This document shows positions 8,252 to 10,102 of a stretch of DNA of 64,000 bases, piece after piece. Origin of the DNA: Shigella phage sb3. The DNA lies in sequence record PQ666541, one strand, 5' to 3'. Under the pieces are notes generated by a model, which saw only the letters and a list, made by a program, of their open reading frames with translations, was not told the origin of the DNA and searched no databases. Numbering within the stretch: the stretch's first letter is position 1; the number at the start of each line of letters is the position of its first letter. The position numbers were made by a program, and so were the translations under genes.

Positions 8252-8286
8252 ATTAATTATACCACATCCTTGTGGTAAAGTAAACT
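8252..8286 (-). promoter_or_regulatory. Early promoter module
   Basis: TTTACT-N17-TATAAT on minus strand. Confidence 0.55.
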
Positions 8287-10102
8287 ACTGGCTCATCCAT
8301 TCTTTACGAAGGTCAGCATTATCTCCCATGAGCATTTCAAAAAGCTCTTTCCAGTTCTCAGGAAGTTTAACAACATCATATACTGGGTTTTGAATCATCT
8401 CACGATATTCAGATTTTTCCAAAGAGCCAAGTCCCTTAATATAACGGATGCTATGTTTAGGTAGAGCATCTTTGGCACTCTCATATTCAGCGACTGTATA
8501 AAACCATTCTTGTTTTTTACCGACCTGAGCGATGATTACAGGAGTTTTGACGAAGCGAATTCTTCCTTGTTCAAACAGTTCTGGCCAATTACTAAAAAAT
8601 CCAAGCAGAGAAGGATAAATGCTTCCTAGACCATCGTGGTCAGCATCGGTCATAATAGCAATATTATGATAATTCAAGTTTTCAGCCTTTTCACCAAGAA
8701 CTAATCCAGTGATTGCGCAAATATCAAACAGTTCTTTGTTTTTAAGCATATCAGCATATGACATACCCCAACTGTTGAGAACTTTACCACGTAATGGATA
8801 ACCACCATGAAGTTCTTTATCACGAACATCAATAAGATATCCGATAGCAGAATCGCCCTCAGTCAAGAAAAGAGTAGTATCAGCATCTTTACCACAAAGA
8901 TTCGCTTTAATATGTTTATGAACCTTAGCTTTAGAAGCCTTTTTAGCTGCTTTAGTTTCTGCTGCCTTTTCTGCCGCCAATTTACGAGCCAAAGCAGCTT
9001 CAATAATTGGCATTAAAATTGCTTCATTATTTAAAATAGCACGTGAAATCTTTTTAGCATCAAGCTGAATATGACTGCGAATTTCACCAAATGGAGAAGT
9101 CAAACGCTCTTTAGTTTGAGAATCAAATCGCATGTTTTTCATATCACGAACAAACATGACGATAGTCAAACATTCTTTAACACGTGCTTTAGTTACATCA
9201 ATTTTGAATTTACGTTTGATTTGTGGAATAAGGTCTTCACAAATATCATCCATAACACAATCAATGTGATGGCCACCATTCTTAGTATGAATGTTATTGA
9301 CGTATGTTAATTGACGAAAACCATCCGGTGAACGACCAACCGCAATAGAACAATTTTCTTGTTCTTGAACAATAGCATGCTCATCATATTGGCGTGCATA
9401 TTTCTTAAAATTACCCTGAACCTTTTTACCATTAAAGGTAAATTGAATATCAGGATAAACTACTGCAAGTGTCTGGAGACGATCTAGTGTAATGTCAAGA
9501 TAAACTTGAGATAGCTCATTAGTTTCAAATGACATAAAATCAGGAATGAAAGTAACACGTGTTCCTTTCCATTTTCCAGGAATATCTTCCCATGATTTAT
9601 TTTCCATGCCATTTGAACAACGAACTACAATATTATTTTGACCGTCGCCAGTTTCACCGACAAACATCACAGAAAAAATGTTAGTTAAACTAGAGCCAAC
9701 ACCGTTCATACCACCAGTGACGCGTTCTTTATCATCACCAAAGTTACCACCTGCTTTTGGAATAGTCCAGGCAGCAACAGGACCAGGAATTTCTTCACCA
9801 GTAGGTGTTTTAACCATCGCTTGTGGAATACCACGACCGTTATCTTCAACTGTTACTTGATTGTTTTTAATAGTAACATTAATTTTATTCGCGAATTTAA
9901 ACTTAGTACGAATACCTTCATCTACTGAGTTATCGATAATTTCATCAATAAGCTTAACAAGACCAGGTACATACTGAACACTTTCCCATTTACCAAACAG
10001 AAAGCGCTCATGCATTTCATTAGCAGAAGAACCAATGTACATGCCGCTACGCTTTTTGATATGTTCAATATCGCTCAGAATTTTAATTTCATTCTTAATC
10101 AT
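8285..10102 (-). CDS. 39: DNA topoisomerase II large subunit (GyrB-like), uninterrupted fusion of T4 genes 39 and 60
   Basis: 605 aa from ATG at 10102 (GAGGA SD; track starts at GTG 10105); ATPase and Toprim regions in one frame. Confidence 0.93.
   Translation of the reverse strand: MIKNEIKILSDIEHIKKRSGMYIGSSANEMHERFLFGKWESVQYVPGLVKLIDEIIDNSVDEGIRTKFKFANKINVTIKNNQVTVEDNGRGIPQAMVKTPTGEEIPGPVAAWTIPKAGGNFGDDKERVTGGMNGVGSSLTNIFSVMFVGETGDGQNNIVVRCSNGMENKSWEDIPGKWKGTRVTFIPDFMSFETNELSQVYLDITLDRLQTLAVVYPDIQFTFNGKKVQGNFKKYARQYDEHAIVQEQENCSIAVGRSPDGFRQLTYVNNIHTKNGGHHIDCVMDDICEDLIPQIKRKFKIDVTKARVKECLTIVMFVRDMKNMRFDSQTKERLTSPFGEIRSHIQLDAKKISRAILNNEAILMPIIEAALARKLAAEKAAETKAAKKASKAKVHKHIKANLCGKDADTTLFLTEGDSAIGYLIDVRDKELHGGYPLRGKVLNSWGMSYADMLKNKELFDICAITGLVLGEKAENLNYHNIAIMTDADHDGLGSIYPSLLGFFSNWPELFEQGRIRFVKTPVIIAQVGKKQEWFYTVAEYESAKDALPKHSIRYIKGLGSLEKSEYREMIQNPVYDVVKLPENWKELFEMLMGDNADLRKEWMSQ

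Follow-up and report, generated by a model that had tools for sequence, protein, structure and literature searches.

An uninterrupted gene 39 for the large subunit of topoisomerase II in Shigella phage sb3

Shigella phage sb3 encodes the large (GyrB-like) subunit of topoisomerase II in a single, uninterrupted gene 39, which lies on the minus strand at positions 8285..10102 of the 64,000-nucleotide stretch of record PQ666541 that was analysed here (the window). T4 encodes the same enzyme, with this subunit divided between genes 39 and 60 (NC_000866 2458-5328). The sb3 gene is almost certainly the parental, uninterrupted allele of the T-even gene 39. In the explanation that we propose, a single polypeptide would carry the GHKL ATPase, the transducer and a complete Toprim domain, the gene would be decoded linearly without a ribosome hop, and gp39 and gp52 would form a two-subunit enzyme, as in T2 and T6, that drives DNA relaxation with ATP and supports phage DNA replication. 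T4 would then be the derived form, in which 64 nt of the gene gave way to a MobA homing-endonuclease cassette of about 1.1 kb that brought the 50-nt gap with it. For annotation, gene 39 of sb3 should be called as a single topoisomerase II large subunit of 605 aa, and no recoding needs to be marked. The locus is an "empty site" for the T4 MobA/bypass cassette and a reference point for studying how that cassette spreads.

Reading frame and junction with the T4 genes

The open reading frame on the minus strand extends over 8285..10105 and specifies 606 aa from a GTG codon; an ATG lies one codon further on, at 10102, and gives 605 codons followed by a TAA stop. Of the two possible start codons, the GTG at 10105 was rejected and the ATG preferred, since the latter is homologous to the starts of T4, T2 and T6 and stands at a suitable spacing from a Shine-Dalgarno sequence (GAGGA at 10109..10113, minus strand, 6 nt 5' of the ATG, read directly off the sequence). 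The 605-aa frame thus begins with MIKNEIK, and its start is identical to the annotated gene 39 start in those three phages. All of the open reading frames that overlap the gene in other frames are of 79 aa or fewer. The original prediction of one uninterrupted 605-aa frame covering T4 gp39 and gp60 was borne out by the ORF listing and by BLASTP; it had not given the strand, which is minus.

T4 was represented by NC_000866 with its annotation. There, gene 39 (516 aa) is followed by a mobA fragment, then 60.1 and then gene 60, whose annotation joins two pieces across a non-coding gap of 50 nt (misc_feature, 2803-2852). By BLASTP, residues 1-473 of sb3 gp39 correspond to residues 1-473 of T4 gp39 (466/473 identical), and residues 472-605 correspond to residues 27-160 of T4 gp60 (128/134, E 7e-96). 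Codon alignment refines the second match, pairing sb3 residues 477-605 with gp60 residues 32-160, so that the two T4 proteins are collinear with sb3 residues 1-473 and 477-605. The part related to gp60 therefore comprises 129 residues and not the C-terminal 90 that had been claimed, while the alignments with T4 gp39 plus gp60, and with T2 gp39 (604/605), otherwise agree with the prediction.

At the nucleotide level, blastn aligned window 10400-8685 with T4 5627-3911 and window 8620-8000 with T4 2793-2173, and between these two alignments 64 nt of the window (8621-8684) stand opposite 1117 nt of T4 (2794-3910). Codons 1-473 (8684..10102, minus strand) are homologous to T4 gp39 1-473 in BLASTP, blastn and codon alignment and include the GHKL ATPase, the transducer and the first half of the Toprim domain, with the left junction following codon 473 (Ala, window 8684-8686). 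The 64-nt parental segment that is replaced in T4 by the 1117-nt MobA cassette (8621..8684, minus strand, delimited as the gap between the blastn alignments) holds codons 474-476 (ENL), absent from T4, and the parental version of the element known as HomR. The latter consists of codons 477-491 (NYHNIAIMTDADHDG; 8630..8674, minus strand), which by nucleotide and codon alignment are the counterpart of T4 gp60 32-46. Only 34 of its 45 nt are identical to T4 (75.6%), as against 96.0% in the gene 39 part and 97.1% in the part after the gap that flank it. This HomR-equivalent is of the T2/T6 type, with 2 to 4 synonymous differences; the two that separate it from T2 are in codons 485 and 489 (ACC/CAC in sb3, ACT/CAT in both T2 and T6), at window about 8636-8650.

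The empty bypass site follows directly, with codons 491 (GGT, Gly) and 492 (CTA, Leu) adjacent at 8627..8632 on the minus strand, where T4 has its gap between GGA46 and TTA47. Although the original prediction placed the 50-nt bypass between genes 39 and 60, it in fact interrupts gene 60 itself between codons 46 and 47, equivalent to codons 491 and 492 of sb3. The 9 nt after the gap position diverge strongly (CTA GGA AGC in sb3, TTA GGT TCT in T4). Codons 492-605 and the stop (8285..8629, minus strand) are homologous to T4 gp60 47-160, with 335/345 nt identical to T4, and contain the second half of the Toprim domain and its C-terminal domain. Nor does the T4 split separate the ATPase from the Toprim region; it falls within the Toprim domain, between the glutamate motif EGDSA (residues 415-419; 8846..8860, minus strand), whose T4 counterpart is on gp39, and the acidic motif DADHDG (residues 486-491; 8630..8647, minus strand), whose T4 counterpart is on gp60, immediately ahead of the codon from which the bypass takes off.

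The claim that sb3 has neither a bypass element nor mobA held throughout the window. The sequence of the T4 50-nt gap has no match in the window with up to 3 mismatches allowed, and T4 gp60.1 and the mobA fragment have no tblastn match anywhere in the 64 kb. The cassette-derived extensions of the T4 proteins, residues 474-516 of gp39 and residues 1-31 of gp60, have no counterpart in the sb3 gene by BLASTP or codon alignment. None of the features of a T4-type split (an ORF for the HNH endonuclease mobA between the two halves, a 50-nt gap after GGA, the gp39 and gp60 extensions, a diverged HomR) was thus found. The T4 insert, 1117 nt for 64, consists of a 43-aa extension of gp39, mobA/60.1, a 31-aa leader of gp60, the diverged HomR and the 50-nt gap, and because of it the T4 enzyme is made of three subunits, its synthesis depends on ribosome hopping and the ENL residues are missing; sb3 is without any of these parts. 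The cassette measures 1117 nt in the T4 reference (2794..3910), whereas T4T, RB55, RB59 and the majority of other carriers have a version of 1106 nt that is 98.7% identical to it; in the 1106-nt records mobA is annotated as intact, whereas in the T4 reference it is a defective fragment.

Frequency of the unsplit form and lineage placement

Matches to any part of gene 39 were found in 533 records of the phage collection. The contiguous 181-nt segment that spans both insertion points (window 8570-8750) is present in 451 phage records, and the 1117-nt T4 cassette in 43, in 41 of them at near full length. The unsplit form is accordingly that of about nine in ten sequenced T4-like phages, and is well known and ordinary. 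An unsplit gene 39 has been described since the late 1980s. In public annotation it is called "39" in T2 and "60plus39" in RB32 and ime09; these two and approximately 450 other Tequatrovirus unsplit genes have the same arrangement as sb3 and only point differences from it. The T2 gene (LC348380.1 2458-4275) is likewise uninterrupted, has the same length of 605 aa and is also located between rIIA.1 and 39.1.

It was originally proposed that the uninterrupted gene marks sb3 as T2/T6-like. Read as a lineage marker that places sb3 specifically with T2 and T6, the unsplit gene has several observations on its side. The protein is essentially T2/T6 gp39, with 604/605 residues identical to T2 (F70L) and 603/605 to T6 (D173T, Q526H; MH550421.1 2447-4264). 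The window contains a beta-glucosyl-HMC-alpha-glucosyltransferase of the T2/T6 type (27541..28380, minus strand, 97.9% aa identity to T2), and b-gt, dam, segA, segF, mobB, mobC and I-TevII of T4 are absent from the 64-kb window, as are segH and T6ORF054 of T6. Over window 5839-53000, T2 and T6 give coverages of 96% and 97% and T4 one of 88%, with mean identities of 94.8%, 94.1% and 93.5%, respectively, in a mosaic pattern.

The counts tell against this reading, however. Records with the T2/T6-type beta-alpha-glucosyltransferase number 474, as against 29 with the T4-type beta-glucosyltransferase (b-gt), and with 451 contiguous junctions to 43 cassettes, both the unsplit gene and the beta-alpha-glucosyltransferase are found in the majority of the genus. 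The counts of cassette, b-gt, beta-alpha-glucosyltransferase and contiguous junction were used to ask whether an unsplit gene goes with the distinction between T4 and T2/T6, and it does not: presence of the cassette does not follow the b-gt type, with exceptions both ways. Comparison of the 29-record b-gt list with the 43-record cassette list gives Pu-Krd-SF1 to SF7, FL12, HMD-9 and others as b-gt phages without the cassette, while the cassette carriers that are absent from the b-gt list include HY01, vB_EcoM_112 and several Salmonella phages. Nor does the gene itself lean towards T2 and T6 in nucleotide sequence, being roughly equidistant from T2 (96.1%), T6 (96.4%) and the shared parts of T4 (96.0-97.1%). 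The nearest records at the locus are UGKSEcP1, EPIMAM01 and PBM-1, at 98.8-99.3% nucleotide identity, rather than T2 or T6, the closest being Escherichia phage UGKSEcP1 at 99.3%. We therefore regard the specific placement with T2 and T6 as unlikely. What stands of the original label is the near identity of the protein and the presence of the beta-alpha-glucosyltransferase. The latter fits a T2/T6 label, yet because 474 records share it the label means only "not T4 proper", which is what sb3 is, like most of its genus. Gene 39 status alone gives no placement with T2 or with T6, and it should not serve to type a phage as T2/T6-like.

Parental state and the MobA cassette

The junction described above can be compared with the published anatomy of the MobA element. 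In that work the unsplit gene is treated as parental and the T4 gene as having been split by a mobile MobA cassette (bioRxiv 10.1101/2022.08.31.505936). The element is associated with a 64-nt deletion of the parental gene, a deletion reported for phage HY01, and with a 43-aa extension on ORF1; ORF2 carries a leader and a HomR, about 30 aa and about 15 aa long; HomR is 67-81% identical to the parental sequence, the 3' end of the element lies just past G491, with 9 nt more in clade 1, and insertion entails a net loss of 2-7 residues (bioRxiv 10.1101/2022.08.31.505936). The difference between sb3 and T4 fits this description, with 64 nt deleted, a HomR identity of 75.6%, a 3' end at G491 plus 9 nt and 3 residues lost. 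Because the anatomy of the junction matches the published element in this way, we take the unsplit gene to be parental and the T4 arrangement to be derived. The word "fusion" that was first applied to the sb3 gene thus reverses the direction of change, since it is T4 that has been split by the MobA cassette (bioRxiv 10.1101/2022.08.31.505936), and the 64 replaced nucleotides are kept in sb3.

The sb3 allele is also predicted to be a recipient, that is, a cleavable homing site for MobA, when the host is co-infected by a phage that carries the cassette, because its 64-nt segment is intact and of the T2 type. Gene 39 is listed as the target of mobA in a Virology Journal review (PMC2988022). The preprint (bioRxiv 10.1101/2022.08.31.505936), citing Bonocora et al. 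(2011), states that the uninterrupted T2 gene is nicked by MobA within this segment; it adds that T2 acquires a copy of the cassette during mixed infection and that the donor is protected by its 50-nt insert, which lies 20 bases downstream of the nick. T2 is thus, on that account, a substrate both for MobA nicking and for transfer of the cassette. From the second-hand position that the preprint gives for the bypass, 20 bases downstream of the nick, the nick site in sb3 would be expected near window 8650. Of the 71 nt at which the sb3 gene differs from that of T2, two are in the HomR-equivalent segment, and these two synonymous differences in the MobA target might reduce nicking, which would make sb3 a naturally homing-resistant unsplit allele. 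We consider this very improbable, since the 11 T4-type HomR polymorphisms, on their own, still fail to block nicking (bioRxiv 10.1101/2022.08.31.505936).

An unsplit gene could in principle also arise secondarily, if an ancestor of sb3 had carried a T4-type MobA cassette and had lost it, with genes 39 and 60 being rejoined. There is precedent for part of such a history, in that some clades have lost the endonuclease and/or the bypass after insertion; these lineages, however, have kept the cassette-derived C- and N-terminal extensions (bioRxiv 10.1101/2022.08.31.505936), and sb3 has none of them. Moreover, sb3 has the 64 parental nucleotides that insertion deletes, codons 474-476 included, and its HomR-equivalent is of the T2/T6 type, matching T4 at just 34 of 45 nt. 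Deletion of a cassette cannot restore the 64 nt and the parental HomR. Only recombination with an unsplit allele could do so, and the product would be an ordinary parental allele anyway. Re-fusion is thus extremely unlikely, and retention of the parental, uninterrupted gene is the reading that we adopt for what follows.

Domains, partner subunit and neighbouring sequences

Four Pfam models bear on the domain structure of sb3 gp39. HATPase_c (38.3 bits, cut-off 26.4), DNA_gyraseB (51.1 bits, cut-off 27) and TOPRIM_C (residues 519-604; 30.7 bits, cut-off 29) score above their cut-offs, while the Toprim model gives 17.5 bits, under its cut-off of 23.1, in a region that aligns residue-for-residue with the solved T6 gp39. 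The cryo-EM structure of T6 gp39 (PDB 8ylu_C; T6 gp39 is also found in 8yo1, 8yo5 and other entries) aligns with the sb3 protein across residues 1-605. Because of the domains above cut-off and this full-length match, the gene 39 frame is a genuine gene and not a chance open reading frame. The GHKL ATPase motifs lie at 9695..9943 on the minus strand, comprising the N-box EIIDNSVDE (9917-9943), G1 DNGRGIP (9824-9844) and G2 GGMNGVG (9695-9715). The QTK loop of the transducer domain, QTKERL (residues 329-334; 9101..9118, minus strand), was assigned from motif positions and Pfam DNA_gyraseB. A PLRGK motif is also found, and the conserved glutamate and the DxD acidic cluster of the Toprim domain are both on the single chain. 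Judged on its sequence, sb3 gp39 carries everything expected of the ATPase/Toprim subunit of a type IIA topoisomerase (GyrB/ParE-like).

Its presumptive partner is encoded by gene 52 (186..1514, minus strand), whose product, identified from the ORF, PDB and Pfam, is the GyrA-like medium subunit of topoisomerase II, of 442 aa. PDB 8yo3_A and 8ylu_A match gp52 over residues 1-442 with E about 1e-297; the score for Pfam DNA_topoisoIV is 259 bits. Gene 52 is about 6.8 kb from gene 39, with ndd, rIIB, rIIA and other genes between them. The T6 topoisomerase II is an active two-subunit enzyme of gp39 and gp52, and in T4 the insertion sits inside the Toprim domain as a pendant of approximately 70 aa (PMC11461880). 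In sb3, gp39 and gp52 would together make up a type IIA topoisomerase with ATP-dependent DNA relaxation activity; this expectation derives from the 603/605 identity of its gp39 to that of T6, whose holoenzyme has been assayed (PMC11461880).

Codon differences between sb3 gene 39 and its relatives are nearly all synonymous, with synonymous to non-synonymous ratios of 69:1 against T2 (the 71 nucleotide differences falling in 69 synonymous codons and 1 non-synonymous codon), 62:2 against T6 and 48:7 against T4, and for this reason the gene is judged to be under strong purifying selection. That it is a decayed or inactive gene which merely happens to be still open has next to no probability, given the ratios against T2 and T6, the intact ATPase, QTK and Toprim motifs and the near identity to the active T6 enzyme (PMC11461880).

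One difference from T4 lies just before the QTK loop. At codons 326-328 of gene 39 the T4 reference NC_000866 reads RLIRQTK, whereas sb3 (9119..9127, minus strand), T2 and T6 read RFDSQTK. In the DNA, T4 is missing one T there and has an additional G, nine bases apart, which amounts to a compensated pair of frameshifts; either a mistake in the old sequencing or genuine variation in T4 could account for it.

Upstream of gene 39, at 10130..10169 on the minus strand, putative expression signals include a GGCC-UUCG-GGCC hairpin (10158-10169) after the stop of 39.1 and a MotA-box-like element, TTAGCTTTA (10148-10156), 12 nt before a TATAAT (10130-10135). Going by the known MotA-box consensus, these elements may constitute a candidate middle promoter of the T4 type. 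A sigma-70 scan did not call the upstream TATAAT site, as would be expected of a promoter that has no -35 element.

Gene 39.1 (10172..10432, minus strand) specifies 86 aa, as in T2, with a lipoprotein-like N-terminus (MKYINRSIAALVLAVSLAGC). In T4 it is annotated with 65 aa, of which residues 4-65 match the C-terminal portion of the sb3 protein at 100% identity; to judge by this comparison, T4 39.1 either lacks the signal sequence or is annotated without it. Between 39.1 and 39.2 there is an open reading frame of 123 aa (10437..10808, minus strand) that is missing in T4. Its product has 91.9% aa identity to a T6 ORF described as "similar to RB69ORF005c" and belongs to no Pfam family, and the T2 version is shorter, at 105 aa. 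A further open reading frame, of 272 aa (3810..4628, minus strand), is located between rIIB and ndd, in the place of denB and the small ndd.x ORFs of T4, and has an N-terminal DUF7418 domain (Pfam, E 3.5e-32).
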